From Clostridia bacterium (GTDB taxonomy: Bacteria; Bacillota; Clostridia; UMGS1810): a stretch of 64,000 nt of DNA. Below the pieces are notes generated by a model. That model had not been told where the DNA came from, did not search any database, and saw only the letters and a program-made list of their open reading frames with translations. The position numbers were made by a program, and so were the translations under genes. Positions 8,620 to 13,759 of the stretch are shown here, piece by piece. The DNA lies in the NCBI GenBank assembly GCA_045644205.1, contig JAZRGM010000052.1, forward strand, positions 19,859-83,858, given 5' to 3'. Within the stretch, counting starts at the first letter, position 1; every line of letters starts with the position of its first letter.

Positions 8620-9159
8620 TTAAATTGAATACAAATAGCAAAGCTCGGGAATACCTTTAAGATGCTTCCTTGCTTTGGATATAAGTGCAGTTATTGTATT
8701 TGCTGATTTACCATAGTGCTTTCCGATATCTTTGGCAGTGTATCCTTTGCTTGACAGTATAAGGGCATTAATGCCCATTGCTGTTGACGGAGATGCACTG
8801 CCTTTTGCTTTTTTAAGTATTTTATAAATTTCAACTTTATCATATGTATCCGTTTCATAAGTTCCACTCATAATAGCCTGCTTAACATCATCTGTTGATT
8901 CTTCCTTTGAATATTTTCGTGATGAATGTATAAGAGCATCGCAGATTTCGTTCCATATGAGCCTATATGCATATGTAGAAAATGTTCCACCTTTATCGAT
9001 TGCCACGGCTTTATATAATCCTATAAGTCCAATCTGGAAAAGGTCTTCATAAGCATACCCGGGTATATCATTAGGGTTATGTACTTTATCTTTTATAACC
9101 TTTCCCACCAGACCCATATTATCTTTTAAAATTCTTTCCTGATTATCAGTCAATTTCAT
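8620..9159 (-). CDS. Sigma-70 family RNA polymerase sigma factor with regions 2 and 4 only (group 4-like)
   Basis: Region 2 reads YEDLFQIGLIGLYKAVAIDKGGTFSTYAYRLIWNEI. The region 4 HTH reads YTAKDIGKHYGKSANTITALISKARKHLK. An AAAGGGGG RBS lies upstream. Confidence 0.75.
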   Translation of the reverse strand: MKLTDNQERILKDNMGLVGKVIKDKVHNPNDIPGYAYEDLFQIGLIGLYKAVAIDKGGTFSTYAYRLIWNEICDALIHSSRKYSKEESTDDVKQAIMSGTYETDTYDKVEIYKILKKAKGSASPSTAMGINALILSSKGYTAKDIGKHYGKSANTITALISKARKHLKGIPELCYLYSI

Positions 9160-9290
9160 GATGCAAGACCCCCTTTGTGCGGTTTCATCCTGTTTTTGAA
9201 TCTTTCTATATACATTTTGCTCTCTTCTATAACCTTTTTGCAGTAGTATTCGCTTAAGTGTCCTATATGAGCGTGCTTCCTACTTTAACG

Positions 9291-9537
9291 AAAAAAAGCC
9301 GGAGAAACTGCAAAAAAACAATACAGAATCAAAGTGCTGAGAATTTGGTTGTCTCATCTCAGCGATTGACTCTGCATGGTTTAAGCAGCCCTCCGGCTTT
9401 AATATTCAATTTAGCTTGCATCATTATGGATTAGCTCTGTGCGCTAAATCCGTAACGGTTCCTTGTTCCTACCTATGACAAGTCTGACACCGTGAATTCT
9501 CCGATGTACCGAAAGCCTGGATGCAAGCTCCTGTCAC
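9291..9537 (-). ncRNA. Candidate structured RNA of about 247 nt, class unknown. It is either a stand-alone sRNA or a long terminator-containing leader of the sigma-factor gene.
   Basis: On the minus strand it starts about 7 nt after a consensus promoter. Domain 1 is closed by the 10-bp helix AGCUUGCAUC/GAUGCAAGCU (9413-9422 with 9520-9529) and encloses the hairpin GGAUUUAGC-GCACAGA-GCUAAUCC. Domain 2 (9295-9400) is a rod about 106 nt long: AAAGCCGGAG/CUCCGGCUUU, CAGAGUCAA/UUGAUUCUG, GCUGAGA/UCUCAGC. It ends in U7. Confidence 0.5.
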
Positions 9538-9543
9538 AGTTAT

Positions 9544-9572
9544 ATTATAGCACAATGCCTGCGTATGTGCAA
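9544..9572 (-). promoter_or_regulatory. Sigma-A-type promoter for the candidate RNA
   Basis: Minus strand: TTGCAC (9572-9567), a 17-nt spacer, then TGcTATAAT with the -10 hexamer at 9549-9544. The -35 element is embedded in the inverted repeat ATGCCT..AGGCAT. Confidence 0.6.
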
Positions 9573-9858
9573 GGCATCAAGCATAAATTCGTCATTATAA
9601 ATAAAAGAATTTATGTATTTCAGTCTGAGGAAAACCATGCCAGTCTGGTGGTATTTTTTTACTCAAAAGCCTCATCTTTTTCGTCATTTTGCACAATTCG
9701 TCTTTTTTATCTGAGATATAAAATTCACTTAAAACTCCGACAGCTAATATAATTTCAAATATAAATATTATAATATGTGATGTTGGAATTGCAGGTTTTA
9801 TATCTATACTTTCTACTAATTTTTATTTAGGTTTACAGTTTATGATGAATTAATTCTC

Positions 9859-10992
9859 TTAGCACAGCCCTAGTTCATCTTCTATCAGACCCATTTCAAT
9901 AGTTCTTACTTTTGCGAGCCCTTCGAGAAACGCGTTAACATAATCCTTTTGAAAATCAAAGCAGAGAACTTCGCTTTTGTATTTATTAAATAAAAGAGCT
10001 TCTTTAAAGCGAATGAGTCTTGCAATATCTCCGTCAAGGTGGGAGAGAATATATTTTCCGTAGACATATGCGTCGTATTCAAATATGCCTCTGCCGTTTG
10101 ATATGGTATCAGACTCAAACAATAAATCAAGTAATTTTTCTTTTACCGTGGGATGGCAAATTAATTTTAATAATCGAATGCCATTATCCGATAACGGAAC
10201 AAAATGTACATACTGATAAATTTTATCGAAGCGAAATTCGTGACGCGTACCGGCCTCGTTCTCCTTCAGCGTTTCAAGTGCTGTTTTGTCAGACTGACCG
10301 AAAAGTATAGCTGAATTTACACTGGTGACATCGGCATTCATTCTGGCTATTTCAATTAAACTGTATAGTGCTTTAAATTCGCCCATGCCGTTCCACTTCA
10401 TAACAGAACCTCGGGTGTTGTATACAGCAAAACATTTTTGATTTGAAAAGATGGCACCTGCCATTCGGGTAAACATTGTTTTATTTTGCTCTATAGACCC
10501 GATGTTTTTTAGATACCTCGAAGTATAGAATACATTTTGTTTCGGTATGACAGAGAGTATCTCACTATTTTGAAGCTCAGGGAGTACATATGGTCGGTAC
10601 TCAACTTCAGACCGCATACACATAGCCACCACTTCCGCAACTCTGTGATTTCTCTCAAGGTGCTTTTTATCACCGGCAAATTTGTGATTCCGGAAGGTCC
10701 CCAAATACACATCTGAAATATTGGGGTATATCCAGTTGAGTATGGGAACAGCCTCTCTGTAAAGTCGGATAGTCTTGCTGCTTCCTTTCCCGGATATGTT
10801 TAAGAATTTACAAAATACTCTTTCACCTGACTCAGAATTGTATAGCTCATTTTTTTCTGAGAGCTTATGAACAATCTTTCGAAAATACCTCTCGTTGCCA
10901 AGTAGTCGGAGTGATGAATATGGGTATTCACCCACCACTGAAAGTATTGCGGCAAGACTGCCCGCCTGACTGCTCGGATGCATATGAAGCAT
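9859..10992 (-). CDS. Hypothetical protein, 377 aa, no confident family (N-terminal winged-helix-like segment)
   Basis: Long intact ORF with an AAGGGTGA RBS. I recognise no catalytic motifs and no CxxC pairs. There is a weak resemblance in motif order to replication-relaxation-type proteins (wHTH, then ERNHRVAEVV). Confidence 0.55.
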   Translation of the reverse strand: MLHMHPSSQAGSLAAILSVVGEYPYSSLRLLGNERYFRKIVHKLSEKNELYNSESGERVFCKFLNISGKGSSKTIRLYREAVPILNWIYPNISDVYLGTFRNHKFAGDKKHLERNHRVAEVVAMCMRSEVEYRPYVLPELQNSEILSVIPKQNVFYTSRYLKNIGSIEQNKTMFTRMAGAIFSNQKCFAVYNTRGSVMKWNGMGEFKALYSLIEIARMNADVTSVNSAILFGQSDKTALETLKENEAGTRHEFRFDKIYQYVHFVPLSDNGIRLLKLICHPTVKEKLLDLLFESDTISNGRGIFEYDAYVYGKYILSHLDGDIARLIRFKEALLFNKYKSEVLCFDFQKDYVNAFLEGLAKVRTIEMGLIEDELGLC

Positions 10993-11247
10993 AGCTCATC
11001 ACCCTTGTCTTGTAAGCATTTTTCGCCAAGGTGACTGCTCTCTTTGGCGTAAATCAGCATGTAAATTAATTGCTAAACTTTGGTTTTTCAAGGGGTTGAG
11101 GCATTTTAAAACAAGTGTAATTTTTTTGATAAAAAATTTAGCAGTTTTTACACCTGTTTTTTAGGTGATTTTAAGACACCTAAATTTATAATATATATGT
11201 TTTTTTACTTTTCAAAAGTGAAAAAAATGAAAAAAGTGAAAATTCAC

Positions 11248-11276
11248 TTGAATTTTTATTGCTGTGTGTGTATAAT
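11248..11276 (+). promoter_or_regulatory. Sigma-A-type promoter of the AlbA_2 gene
   Basis: TTGAAT (11248-11253), a 17-nt spacer, then TATAAT (11271-11276). It lies inside the 5' extension of the tracked ORF. Confidence 0.55.
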
Positions 11277-11301
11277 ATTAATGGAGAGAGGTGTTAACAT
11301 A

Positions 11302-12600
11302 ATGATTGAGAATGAAAAATGTGAATTTAAGAGTGAATATACAGATAATGTTTTGAAAACTATAATTGCATTTGTGAATACTGATGGCGGTAAAATATTT
11401 ATTGGAGTTAATGACAATGGGGAGCCGACAGGGATTGAAAATATTGATGAATGTTATACAAGGATAACCAATTCCATAAGAGACAGTATTTCTCCGGATG
11501 TTACGATGTTCATAAAATACACAATAAACGAGGAAGACAGAATTATTGTAATTACTGTTTCAGAGGGCACAAATAAACCATATTTTTTAAAGTCAAAAGG
11601 TATGCGACCAGAAGGTGTATATGTTCGTCAGGGTGCAACTTCCGCACCTGCTTCTATGGAGAAGATAAGACAAATGATAAAGCTTTCAGAAAAAGAAACT
11701 TTTGAGAGTGGTCGTGCGTTAAATCAGGACCTTCATTTTACAGAAGCTACAAATGAATTTTCAATTAAAAAGGTAGAATTTAACAAAGGAAAATATGTTT
11801 CTTTAGGCATTATTAATCCTGATGATGAATTATATACTAATCTTGCGGTTTTGTTATCAGATGAGTGCGAACACACAATAAAAGTTGCTATCTTTGATGG
11901 CAATGACAAAAAAACATTCAAGGACAGAAAAGAGTTCACAGGTTCTTTATTTAAACAGTTGCGTAATTGTTATGAATATCTTAAGCTTTGCAATCATACC
12001 GCTGCAACCTTTGAAGGACTCGATAGAATAGACCGTGATGATTATCCTGTATCAGCATTAAGAGAAGCTTTGCTAAATGCCCTTGTTCATCGTGATTATT
12101 CTTTTAGCGGAAGCATAATGATAAATATTTTTGATGATAAAGTTGAATTCGTTTCCCTCGGAGGATTGGTAAGCGGATTATCAAAAGAGGATATTTTGAG
12201 AGGTGTTTCACAAACACGAAATCACAACCTTGCCAATGTTTTTTACGGATTAAAGCATGTTGAGGCTTATGGCACCGGTATCCAAAGAATATTTGATCTA
12301 TATGCTGAAGATAATCTTCAACCGGATATCATCATTACCGATAATACATTTACTATGATACTACCTAATCGGAATGTGGGAGAAAAAACCAAAGAATTTA
12401 TGCTCCAAAAACCTATGACACAACAAGAAAAAAGTATTCTTGGCTATATTAAAGAAAATGGTTTTATAACCGATCATGAAGTTCAAACAATGTTTGATGT
12501 CAAACAAACAAGGGCTTATAATATTATAAAATCAATGAAATATAAAGGACTTCTTGTAACAAAGGGCAGAGGAAATGATAAAAAACATTATTTGAAATAG
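11302..12600 (+). CDS. Schlafen-like AlbA_2 domain / HATPase_c_4 (RecG C-terminal-like) / C-terminal wHTH protein
   Basis: CEFKSEYTDNVLKTIIAFVNTDGGKIFIGVNDNGEPTGI is AlbA_2-like. REALLNALVHRDYSFSGSIMINIFDDKVEFVSLGG...EAYGTGIQRIF is HATPase_c_4-like. I chose the start at ATG 11302 (GGAGAGAGG RBS) rather than the tracked 11197. Confidence 0.75.
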   Translation: MIENEKCEFKSEYTDNVLKTIIAFVNTDGGKIFIGVNDNGEPTGIENIDECYTRITNSIRDSISPDVTMFIKYTINEEDRIIVITVSEGTNKPYFLKSKGMRPEGVYVRQGATSAPASMEKIRQMIKLSEKETFESGRALNQDLHFTEATNEFSIKKVEFNKGKYVSLGIINPDDELYTNLAVLLSDECEHTIKVAIFDGNDKKTFKDRKEFTGSLFKQLRNCYEYLKLCNHTAATFEGLDRIDRDDYPVSALREALLNALVHRDYSFSGSIMINIFDDKVEFVSLGGLVSGLSKEDILRGVSQTRNHNLANVFYGLKHVEAYGTGIQRIFDLYAEDNLQPDIIITDNTFTMILPNRNVGEKTKEFMLQKPMTQQEKSILGYIKENGFITDHEVQTMFDVKQTRAYNIIKSMKYKGLLVTKGRGNDKKHYLK

Positions 12601-12829: not shown

Positions 12830-13759
12830 ATGGACAAAAAAGAGCTTTTAAAACACATAGGCAGCATAGAACAGATAGGCGGCATAAAAGACTATACCTT
12901 CAATGATGGAAAGTCAAAAGGCGTAAGAGCCATTGAAATAAACACAGGAAAGCTTTCCTTCACCATCCTTCCCGACAGATGCATGGATATTGCCCAGGCG
13001 TTTTTCTGCGGTGAAGCAGTAAGCTGGATTTCAAAAACGGGAATCACCCATCCCTCCTTCTATGAAAAAGACGGGAAGAATTGGCTCCGCGGTTTCTATG
13101 GCGGTCTTATAACCACCTGCGGTCTTAAAAATATCGGCGGTGCAGTGGGAGATAATGGTCTCCATGGCAGAATAGCAAATATTCCTGCCGAAAAGGTCAG
13201 CATCTTTGCTGATTGGGTTGGCGATGAATATATAATGCAGGTTTCGGGTATAATGCGAGAATGTCATGCTTTGGGGCTTAACCTTGTTCTTAAGCGCACC
13301 ATAACAGCCAAGCTCTTTGACGATAGCTTCACAGTTGAAGATGTTGTTATAAACGAAGGCTTCTCCGATGAAGACATCGCCCTTTGCTATCATTGCAACT
13401 TTGGCTATCCTCTTGTTTGCGAAGATGCAAAAATAATAAATGTTCCCGAAGATATTGCCTCAATATCTGCTCCCACCCATGCCATAGCTGAGAAATGTAT
13501 CAACATTCCCAAAGATGACGACATTGTAACCGTTGGAATAGAAAATAAATCAATGGGTGCCTACATAACCTATCAGACCAGAACCCTTCCCGATTTCCTT
13601 GTGTGGAAAATGTTTGGCGAAGGTGATTATGTTGTAGGCTTAGAGCCCCGCACCACAGCCCTTGGCGGACAAAACATTATAGATAGCAATAAATTTGTTA
13701 AATTAAAGCCTTTTGAAGAATATGAAACATATCTTAAATTTGATTTCAAGAAATTTTAA
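12830..13759 (+). CDS. Aldose 1-epimerase family protein (DUF4432-like)
   Basis: IGGIKDYTFNDGKSKGVRAIEINTGKLSFTILPDRCMDIAQAFFCGEAVSWISKTG matches the N-terminal pattern of DUF4432/galactose-mutarotase-like proteins. An RBS is present. Confidence 0.7.
   Translation: MDKKELLKHIGSIEQIGGIKDYTFNDGKSKGVRAIEINTGKLSFTILPDRCMDIAQAFFCGEAVSWISKTGITHPSFYEKDGKNWLRGFYGGLITTCGLKNIGGAVGDNGLHGRIANIPAEKVSIFADWVGDEYIMQVSGIMRECHALGLNLVLKRTITAKLFDDSFTVEDVVINEGFSDEDIALCYHCNFGYPLVCEDAKIINVPEDIASISAPTHAIAEKCINIPKDDDIVTVGIENKSMGAYITYQTRTLPDFLVWKMFGEGDYVVGLEPRTTALGGQNIIDSNKFVKLKPFEEYETYLKFDFKKF

Follow-up and report, generated by a model that had tools for sequence, protein, structure and literature searches.

A DUF3268 RNA with a conserved promoter and a rod-like terminator domain upstream of a sigma-factor operon in gut Clostridia

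Introduction

What is the structured RNA that lies ahead of a sigma-factor gene in a contig of a Clostridia bacterium (assembly GCA_045644205.1, contig JAZRGM010000052.1), and does it control that gene? We analysed a stretch of 64,000 nucleotides of this contig (the window, whose positions are used throughout). Between 9572 and 9291 its minus strand carries a promoter followed by an RNA of about 247 nt with two folded domains. The original prediction, made from the sequence of the window, took this RNA to be an orphan. It offered two readings of its role: a new cis-regulatory leader gating the sigma factor by termination or antitermination, or a stand-alone partner of a neighbouring 377-aa protein.

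Results and Discussion

Domain 1 belongs to the DUF3268 RNA family

We compared the whole window with the families of Rfam 15. The sole match at the gathering threshold was the DUF3268 RNA motif (RF02966), which covers domain 1 (9413-9535, minus strand) over model positions 1-121 of 121 and scores 104.8 bits against a gathering score of 65.3 (E = 6.3e-21). The match was reproduced in a second Rfam scan. The RNA had been described as an orphan matching no known family, a status that the original prediction had itself tied to the outcome of a cmscan search against Rfam. That search returned a clean family match, and the orphan label has to be withdrawn.

The structural details that had been proposed for domain 1 were borne out. 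The long-range helix P1 consists of 10 perfect base pairs, AGCUUGCAUC (9529-9520) with GAUGCAAGCU (9422-9413), and the internal hairpin GGAUUUAGC/GCUAAUCC is present with one bulged base. The core is a three-way k-junction (GUCAGAC / GGAACCG) with a conserved junction, CAGGCUUUCG. The architecture of the family was found complete, with P1, a three-way junction bearing two hairpins and a fourth hairpin, and all helices of the model could be aligned. The k-junction signature, the tandem sheared G.A pairs of GUCAGAC and GGAACCG, was invariant in a 30-sequence alignment that included the window. Covariation across relatives was seen in P1, P2, P2a, P2b and P4, with compensatory changes in every helix of domain 1. 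The window shares with the family not only P1, the three-way k-junction and the invariant junction nucleotides, but also its occurrence in gut Clostridia and, by way of a gene remnant, the link with DUF3268 (PF11672). On every RNA-level criterion tested, the window RNA is a member of RF02966.

The DUF3268 RNA is thus already known as a family. It comes from a survey that reported 224 motifs (Weinberg et al. 2017, NAR 45:10811), and the main text of that paper does not discuss it. Its k-junction was predicted and then crystallised by Lilley's group (PDB 8ITS; Li et al. 2023, RNA 29:1411), and it has been stated of the RNA that 'no function has been ascribed' (PMC10573300). A literature search for 'DUF3268' found the RNA treated only in papers on k-turns and k-junctions, and a search for 'PF11672' found nothing. 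Rfam gives the type of RF02966 as 'Gene; sRNA'. The model ends at P1, which leaves the rod and terminator of the window RNA outside it.

Related loci in gut Clostridia

We collected relatives by searching the species-representative genomes of GTDB with a pattern for domain 1. This yielded 64 stretches, about 52 of them with the full motif and all from gut or rumen Clostridia (Lachnospiraceae, Oscillospiraceae, Ruminococcaceae and others); the other 12 came from unrelated phyla, and their number equals the chance expectation. A second pattern, in which the domain 1 junction and the 5' strand of the rod were both free to vary, gave at least 120 matches in metagenome contigs, of which about 114 were genuine. 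One of four matches in viral contigs was genuine (L066), and blastn of the RNA against annotated phage and plasmid collections gave no match. The comparative set comprises at least about 170 related loci from gut Clostridia.

A promoter at a fixed distance from the motif

The proposed minus-strand promoter, TTGCAC-17 nt-TGcTATAAT, is present in the window, with its -35 element at 9567-9572 and its extended -10 element at 9544-9552. In 47 related unique loci the position of the -35 element is TTGACA-like with a 17-nt spacer, and nearly all loci carry the TG extension with a TATAAT or TATACT hexamer. The window copy combines a perfect extended -10 with a -35 that is weaker than the family consensus TTGACA. 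Among the 48 unique genome loci, 41 match the consensus TTGACA/TATAAT at 10 or more of 12 positions with a constant distance to the motif; 46 have a 17-nt spacer, and most have the TG extension. The closest relative among the matches listed (L096) has an identical promoter.

The distance from the -10 element to the start of the motif is fixed at 6 +/- 1 nt in nearly all loci. Since the -10 ends about 6 nt before the first aligned bases of the motif, transcription is expected to start essentially at the motif, which from the position of the -10 element would be near 9537 on the minus strand. A scan of the window found no promoter-like site antisense to the RNA, and none at 9160-9290, between the terminator and the sigma-factor gene.

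Domain 2 is a conserved rod followed by a U-tract

P1 is joined by a linker, AAAUUGAAUAUU (9401-9412), to the second domain; within the linker, AAUUGAAUAU is conserved family-wide in the alignments. Domain 2 is a rod-like hairpin of about 100 nt (9298-9398, minus strand), supported by the minimum free energy (MFE) fold and by covariation, and it is followed by a U7 tract (9291-9297) that completes an intrinsic terminator, as a hairpin and U-run do in relatives. The outer helix of the rod is AGCCGGAGGGCUGC / GCAGUUUCUCCGGCU and the inner helix CAGAGUCAA / UUGAUUCUG; the apical stem is capped by a GAUGAGACA(A)CC loop, and there is an internal U-run at 9312-9318. A further sequence element of domain 2 is the rod loop GAGACACC. 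The rod folds to -49.7 kcal/mol and so combines, with its U-tract, the stable GC-rich hairpin and U-run of an intrinsic terminator; a generic terminator scanner missed it because its limits on loop and stem size were too small. The original prediction had the continuous rod (9398-9298) and U7 right, and underestimated its pairing: about 30 bp were proposed, and the MFE structure has about 39 bp.

The whole 247-nt strand folds to -89.1 kcal/mol, compared with -60.3 +/- 4.5 for dinucleotide shuffles (z = -6.4), and none of 200 shuffles folded as well. RNAalifold applied to the 30-sequence alignment predicts both domains, with compensatory changes in 32 of 52 predicted pairs. Considered alone, the rod has 95.5% of its alignment cells paired, compared with 32-49% in slid controls, and 15 of its 24 pairs show compensatory (two-sided) change, a level reached by 0 of 500 shuffles. 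The covariation between homologues that had been proposed as a check was therefore found in both domains. Because of these compensatory changes, together with the E value of 6.3e-21 for domain 1, the structure of the RNA is far beyond chance.

The genome loci had been chosen by the domain 1 pattern only and are therefore unbiased for statistics on domain 2. A scan anchored only on domain 1 found a hairpin and U-run 3' of the motif in 44 of the 48 unique genome loci, and 42 of these 44 hairpins were long (68-134 nt, -34 to -72 kcal/mol). One locus has a short version of the hairpin that keeps the same outer helix (L029). In two loci the hairpin runs into the ribosome-binding site (RBS) without a U-run (L060 and L063), and two copies are disrupted by insertions (L032 and L056). 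A covariance model of linker and rod (R1) scored 114 bits at 9290-9413 and matched nowhere else in the window. In the related loci it gave one match each, always directly 3' of domain 1. A search of domain 2 against Rfam gave no match; the sole signals, from miRNA hairpin models, were noise well short of the thresholds of those models.

Domain 2 resembles ordinary intrinsic (Rho-independent) terminators in being a GC-closed hairpin with a U7 tract; it differs from them in its size (about 100 nt and about 39 bp) and in its second, internal U-run. It is also conserved in primary sequence, including AGCCGGAAGGCUGC, CAGAGUCAA, the loop GAUGAGACACC and the two U-runs, with a mean column identity of 69%. 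This conservation extends to loops and internal loops, for example GAGUCAAU and GAUGAGACACC, and is kept across loci whose proteins are only 40-60% identical, which is atypical of plain terminators. The sequence constraint on the rod exceeds what a plain terminator needs. Compared with the RF02966 model, the window and nearly all of its relatives thus add a conserved rod and terminator and a fixed promoter. The promoter, terminator and covariation of the relatives support the proposal that this is a real, conserved unit running from promoter to terminator.

The RNA heads a short operon in conjugative elements

In intact loci the next gene 3' of the RNA encodes a zinc-ribbon protein of about 155 aa matching Pfam PF11672 (DUF3268; E = 1.6e-53). 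Next in line is the gene for a homologue of the window sigma factor, whose start codon usually overlaps the stop codon of the DUF3268 gene, and a signal peptidase I (S26) is often the third product. The window protein itself is a sigma-70-family, ECF-like sigma factor of 179 aa with regions 2 and 4 (8620-9159, minus strand), the product of the second operon gene behind the RNA; no identical protein was on record in an exact-protein look-up. Its homologues, encoded downstream of the RNA on the same strand, share 38-69% amino acid identity with it. Among genome loci with at least 1.3 kb of downstream sequence (n=44), the DUF3268 gene was found in 43, the sigma gene in 39 and the signal peptidase gene in 31; the corresponding counts for metagenome loci (n=76, among the matches listed) were 72, 70 and 44. 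The downstream set varies between DUF3268-sigma-peptidase, DUF3268-peptidase and sigma alone, and in two loci (L041 and L185) the sigma gene directly follows the terminator. A profile of the DUF3268 protein compared with PDB sequences showed only a generic zinc-ribbon likeness, to RpoP/Rpo12 and eL43 (E >=0.016).

In all loci examined the RNA lies on the strand of the downstream genes. Between the last base of the U-tract and the start codon of the DUF3268 gene lie 13-91 nt (median 26, n=103 among the matches listed), and in most loci this leaves too little space for a further promoter. No conserved ORF that could serve as a leader peptide was found inside the RNA.

Upstream, on the same strand, a protein of about 190 aa with a signal peptide and a C-terminal membrane anchor is encoded up to about 115 nt before the RNA. 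Further upstream are large LPXTG-type adhesins and sortases, and beyond these an S1-domain protein and the type IV secretion coupling protein (PF02534), with homologues of the 377-aa protein immediately before PF02534. Judged from these gene contents, the neighbourhood of the RNA in intact loci is a conjugative-element module, and the RNA operon (DUF3268, sigma, signal peptidase I) stands at its end. Schaedlerella arabinosiphila DSM 106076 (L061) and Eubacterium sp. 14-2 (L005) are examples of hosts with an intact element.

The window locus is a predicted deletion relic

The RNA had been placed upstream of the sigma gene with about 130 nt between the U-tract and the start codon. In the window this is accurate (131 nt, to the ATG at 9159); family-wide it is the DUF3268 gene that comes directly next. 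The gap in the window is a 3' stump of that gene (9156-9279, minus strand), recognised by 74-77% nucleotide matches to DUF3268 3' ends from most loci. What is left is 39 in-frame codons (HAHIGHLSEYYCKKVIEESKMYIERFKNRMKPHKGGLAS*) ending in a stop that overlaps the sigma ATG, and a deletion has taken the RBS together with the first approximately 112 codons. With only 39 codons of the DUF3268 gene left, sigma is the first intact downstream gene. The typical context of RF02966, a PF11672 gene directly downstream, is therefore reduced in the window to this 3' remnant, whereas L096 has the intact gene. L096, a metagenome contig of 2.15 kb, is collinear with the window (10440-9279 at 84% and 9279-8629 at 78% identity), and the 338 extra nt that it has at the junction are the RBS and first approximately 112 codons of an intact DUF3268 gene.

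A second remnant lies in the 286 nt that separate the promoter from the 377-aa gene. It is the C-terminal transmembrane segment of the signal-peptide protein of about 190 aa (9694-9819, minus strand), which blastx matched to the protein of another locus (L166) with 47.6% identity over 42 aa (E = 1.4e-8); the same C-terminal position of this protein was matched in dozens of loci. The stub indicates a second deletion, common to L096, which took everything between the 377-aa gene and the stub. The window thus appears to be a doubly deleted relic of a conjugative element: the two deletions removed conjugation genes and most of the DUF3268 gene, and left the 377-aa gene, the RNA and the sigma gene.

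These deletions bear directly on the suggestion of a dedicated partnership between the RNA and the 377-aa protein encoded next to it (9859-10992, minus strand). The RNA adjoins the 377-aa gene in the window and in L096, as such a partnership would have it, but in both this adjacency came about by a deletion, and the stub of the membrane-protein gene is what remains of the intervening stretch. In other loci with sufficient upstream sequence, the 377-aa homologues are encoded 2-11 kb away on the upstream side, just before the type IV coupling protein, which assigns the protein to the conjugation module. The gene directly upstream of the RNA in most loci is instead that of a large adhesin. The 377-aa protein itself had no match in Pfam, NCBIfam, PHROGs or PDB sequences. 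The partnership is rejected on synteny, and we regard it as highly improbable. Of the two protein families that homologues of the RNA might always neighbour, the sigma factor is encoded downstream in 39 of 44 genome loci; the 377-aa homologues adjoin the RNA in the window and in L096 and otherwise lie at the distance given above.

Conservation between the window and L096 is uneven. Nucleotide identity is 100% in the promoter, 97.6% in domain 1 and 96.7% in domain 2, compared with 73% in the 377-aa gene and 77% in the sigma gene. An identity so far above that of the flanking genes means that the RNA unit is still strongly constrained or was recently exchanged between lineages. This suggests that the RNA is still constrained in the window without its DUF3268 gene. 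The RNA unit of the window, lying in a decayed element, may nevertheless no longer be active.

No alternative pairing between the two domains was found

A conserved aptamer-like domain followed by a terminator in a 5' leader is the layout of a riboswitch. Domain 1 has the look of an aptamer: several helices meet in a junction with invariant nucleotides, and a k-junction is part of the fold. The latter is shared with TPP riboswitches, which like the DUF3268 RNA carry the k-junction within a multi-helix fold and continue into an intrinsic terminator. The window RNA has, however, no sequence or Rfam similarity to the TPP aptamer. In a classical metabolite riboswitch, a ligand bound at domain 1 would decide whether the rod terminator forms or whether the junction CAGGCUUUCGG pairs instead with the 5' strand of the rod, CCGGAAGGCUG, as an antiterminator. 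Of 11 positions in these two segments, 10 can pair; 97% of alignment cells are compatible with this, compared with at most 65% when slid, and RNAduplex gave the junction as the best upstream partner of the rod 5' strand in about 80% of sequences.

Several observations weigh against this antiterminator. We found no two-sided covariation for the pairing. The U-to-C junction variant CAGGCUCUCGG, present in 27 of 129 sequences among the matches listed, puts a C.A mismatch at the centre of the proposed helix, and this mismatch is not compensated. Folds of truncated transcripts rarely predicted the pairing, which as a pseudoknot lies outside the scope of RNAfold. The pairing would moreover leave the inner hairpin and U-run free to form, and by our estimate an equally good match would arise by chance about once in eight such RNAs. 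The pairing of CAGGCUUUCGG with the rod 5' strand is accordingly not supported as an antiterminator.

A general search gave the same picture. Mutual information with APC correction (121 sequences, effective number about 47) recovered the known helices only and no inter-domain helix; just one pair linked the domains (positions 20 and 202), and it stands without paired neighbours and seems to be confined to a clade. The mutually exclusive pairing of aptamer and terminator that characterises a classical riboswitch was thus absent from the window RNA and the alignments, and the sequence of the putative expression platform is conserved, which is not typical of riboswitches. We consider a classical metabolite riboswitch unlikely. 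From its sequence the RNA would work like a leader or attenuator, one that lacks the alternative pairing of classical riboswitches.

A proposed termination gate on the sigma operon

The best explanation of these results, and one that we consider moderately probable, is that the RF02966 copy, its near-consensus promoter of housekeeping type and the rod with its U-tract act together in cis to gate the sigma operon by termination. Most of the transcription that begins at this strong promoter would end at the rod and U7 and release an RNA of about 245 nt. The sigma gene would be expressed only by read-through of this terminator, because nothing promoter-like lies between terminator and gene. In most loci there is also no room for another promoter before the next RBS, so that downstream expression would have to pass the rod. 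The k-junction domain would modulate read-through in response to some factor. Because no alternative pairing was found, a gate run by a protein or by RNA polymerase itself is favoured, and either would be a more likely operator than the switching of a classical riboswitch. The reading of the original prediction, a new cis leader that gates the sigma factor by termination or antitermination, therefore agrees with the comparative data as far as the termination gate is concerned; the leader is not new, since it belongs to RF02966.

The main rival to a gate in cis is a role as an abundant stand-alone small RNA, in which the transcript of about 245 nt, as an RNA of the conjugative element, acts in trans on mRNAs or binds a protein or RNA polymerase. 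Downstream genes would then be expressed by passive leak through the terminator, and domain 1 would have no role in termination. The consensus promoter of the RNA and its very strong terminator predict a discrete transcript, Rfam types the family as an sRNA, and alternative pairing between the domains was not found, all of which would fit. Both domains keep their sequence, whereas the proteins encoded nearby have diverged to 38-63% identity, and such conservation in the rod is as compatible with a functional stand-alone RNA as with a leader. RNA and terminator also persist intact in loci whose downstream genes are lost or decayed (L108, which is RNA-only, and L178), and the window RNA is 97% identical to that of L096 despite the deletion of the DUF3268 gene. 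A trans-acting RNA would, on the other hand, need no site directly before an RBS without an intervening promoter, and yet the RNA is strictly collinear with the same operon, 13-91 nt upstream of it, in about 120 loci among the matches listed. Nor did it ever occur away from the conjugation module among these matches, so that the genomic independence of a stand-alone RNA was not seen, and it has no known target or partner. A small-RNA role is possible, although we hold it to be doubtful. From its placement the RNA is predicted to be a gate in cis, whatever else it may do.

Processive antitermination offers another way of working in cis. The put RNAs of phage HK022 and the EAR elements of Bacillus eps operons are promoter-proximal structured RNAs upstream of terminators that act in this manner. 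If the DUF3268 RNA were of the put or EAR (B. subtilis eps operon) type, domain 1 would fold once transcribed and make the polymerase resistant to termination; transcripts from its own promoter would pass the rod, and entry from the upstream conjugation and adhesin genes would be blocked. The start of the motif does coincide with the predicted +1 of a promoter whose position is fixed, a conserved terminator follows directly, and the upstream genes are on the same strand, which would make an insulating terminator sensible. No platform for alternative pairing would be needed, matching the negative covariation search. The likeness to put and EAR is nevertheless one of position: the DUF3268 RNA shares no sequence, structural or Rfam similarity with either, and the downstream operon of about 1.5 kb is so short that processivity is hardly needed. 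The sequence conservation of the rod would also be left unexplained. We judge an RNA of this kind improbable.

A cis gate would have a parallel in another conjugative element. In Tn916, attenuation in the tet(M) leader feeds into orf7/orf8, and read-through of the leader terminator leads to a gene for a sigma-factor-like regulator and to activity of the element. Attenuation in that leader is mediated by ribosomes on a translated leader peptide. The two systems would share their setting in a conjugative element and the read-through of a leader terminator into a sigma-factor-like regulator, which for the DUF3268 RNA is a prediction from sequence. They differ in that the DUF3268 leader, a large structured RNA, contains no conserved ORF, and as far as tested the proteins are unrelated.

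A more specific form of the termination gate can be put forward tentatively. RF02966 might represent just the 5' half of a conserved RNA, about 245 nt long and with two domains, that serves as a signal-responsive gate on sigma operons in Clostridial conjugative elements. The 3' rod would then be under selection at the level of its sequence, and the gate could be driven by a protein, RNA polymerase or a ligand. If this is true, the two-domain gate would be a case of RNA-based control of horizontal gene transfer in gut bacteria, with a mechanism that dispenses with the usual alternative pairing of terminator and antiterminator.

The window RNA should be annotated as a DUF3268 RNA (RF02966). To this label the analysis adds a family-wide promoter, a conserved rod domain that the Rfam model does not include, a context of conjugative elements and sigma operons, and the status of the present locus as a probable deletion derivative. 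The comparative picture yields the concrete hypothesis that the RNA gates the sigma factor of a mobile element. For this hypothesis the window copy is a natural deletion variant, in which the DUF3268 gene is gone and the RNA is nearly unchanged.

The rod of the DUF3268 RNA

The rod that forms domain 2 of the RNA carries two conserved U-runs on the minus strand, one following the inner hairpin (9312-9318) and the other following the complete rod (9291-9297). Since U-runs end both the inner hairpin and the complete rod, this domain looks like two nested terminators. The 5' strand of the rod also contains a self-folding element, AGCC-GNRA-GGCU (9385-9398, minus strand, and homologous positions), which can pair into a hairpin of 4 bp whose tetraloop consists of purines only. 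At least 96% of sequences allow this hairpin, and its tetraloop is most often GGAA (77/121), followed by GAAA (14/121), GAGA (8/121) and GGAG (6/121). The hairpin might serve as a transient antiterminator or as a docking element.

Several related loci represent natural disrupted variants of the RNA unit. An insertion of ~265 nt separates domain 1 from the rod in L032, the rod itself is interrupted by an insertion in L087, and the motif is truncated in L056. In two further loci (L108 and L178) the downstream genes have been lost or have decayed, and the RNA and its terminator are intact.

The region upstream of the RNA promoter

The 'intergenic' spacer in front of this promoter holds a stub (9694-9819, minus strand) encoding the C-terminal membrane anchor of a ~190-aa signal-peptide protein, and in intact elements this protein precedes the RNA. 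Comparison of the window with its closest relative, the collinear metagenome contig L096, showed 93% identity over the whole length of the 286-nt spacer, with lower identity in the flanking genes (73-77%). There is a second promoter-like site, CTGAAA-18-TATAAT (9594-9623, minus strand), ~50 nt ahead of the main promoter. This site is conserved in L096 as well and could have arisen by chance, the DNA being AT-rich.

In most family members (e.g. L003, L025, L028 and L064), the -35 hexamer is preceded at a distance of ~10 nt by a conserved box rich in AT, AAATATTCC(t)ataAGG, which may be a UP element or an operator. An AATATT core is common to this box and the conserved linker AAUUGAAUAU. The window lacks the box seen in these related loci.

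The DUF3268 gene remnant and the genomic setting

Downstream of the RNA, what is left in the window of a DUF3268 (PF11672) zinc-ribbon gene is its 3' part (9156-9279, minus strand), comprising 39 in-frame codons, with a stop codon that overlaps the ATG of the sigma-factor gene. Relative to L096, a 338-nt deletion has removed the RBS and ~112 codons of this gene. The decayed conjugative-element fragment to which the RNA belongs adjoins, on the opposite strand, a gene (11197-12600, plus strand) whose 467-aa product has Schlafen/AlbA_2 and HATPase_c_4 domains. Apart from this gene and that of a 309-aa protein (12830-13759), the flanking genes are housekeeping genes, with an electron-transfer flavoprotein gene at one end of the fragment and nusA at the other.

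The RNA was found in just one 'viral' contig, L066 (IMG/VR contig UViG_3300029575_000175). This contig also encodes a type IV coupling protein and a homolog of the 377-aa protein, and is probably a conjugative element rather than a phage. Separately, a lysine riboswitch (RF00168) at 11377-11564 of L113, an unrelated chance match, has no bearing on the DUF3268 RNA.
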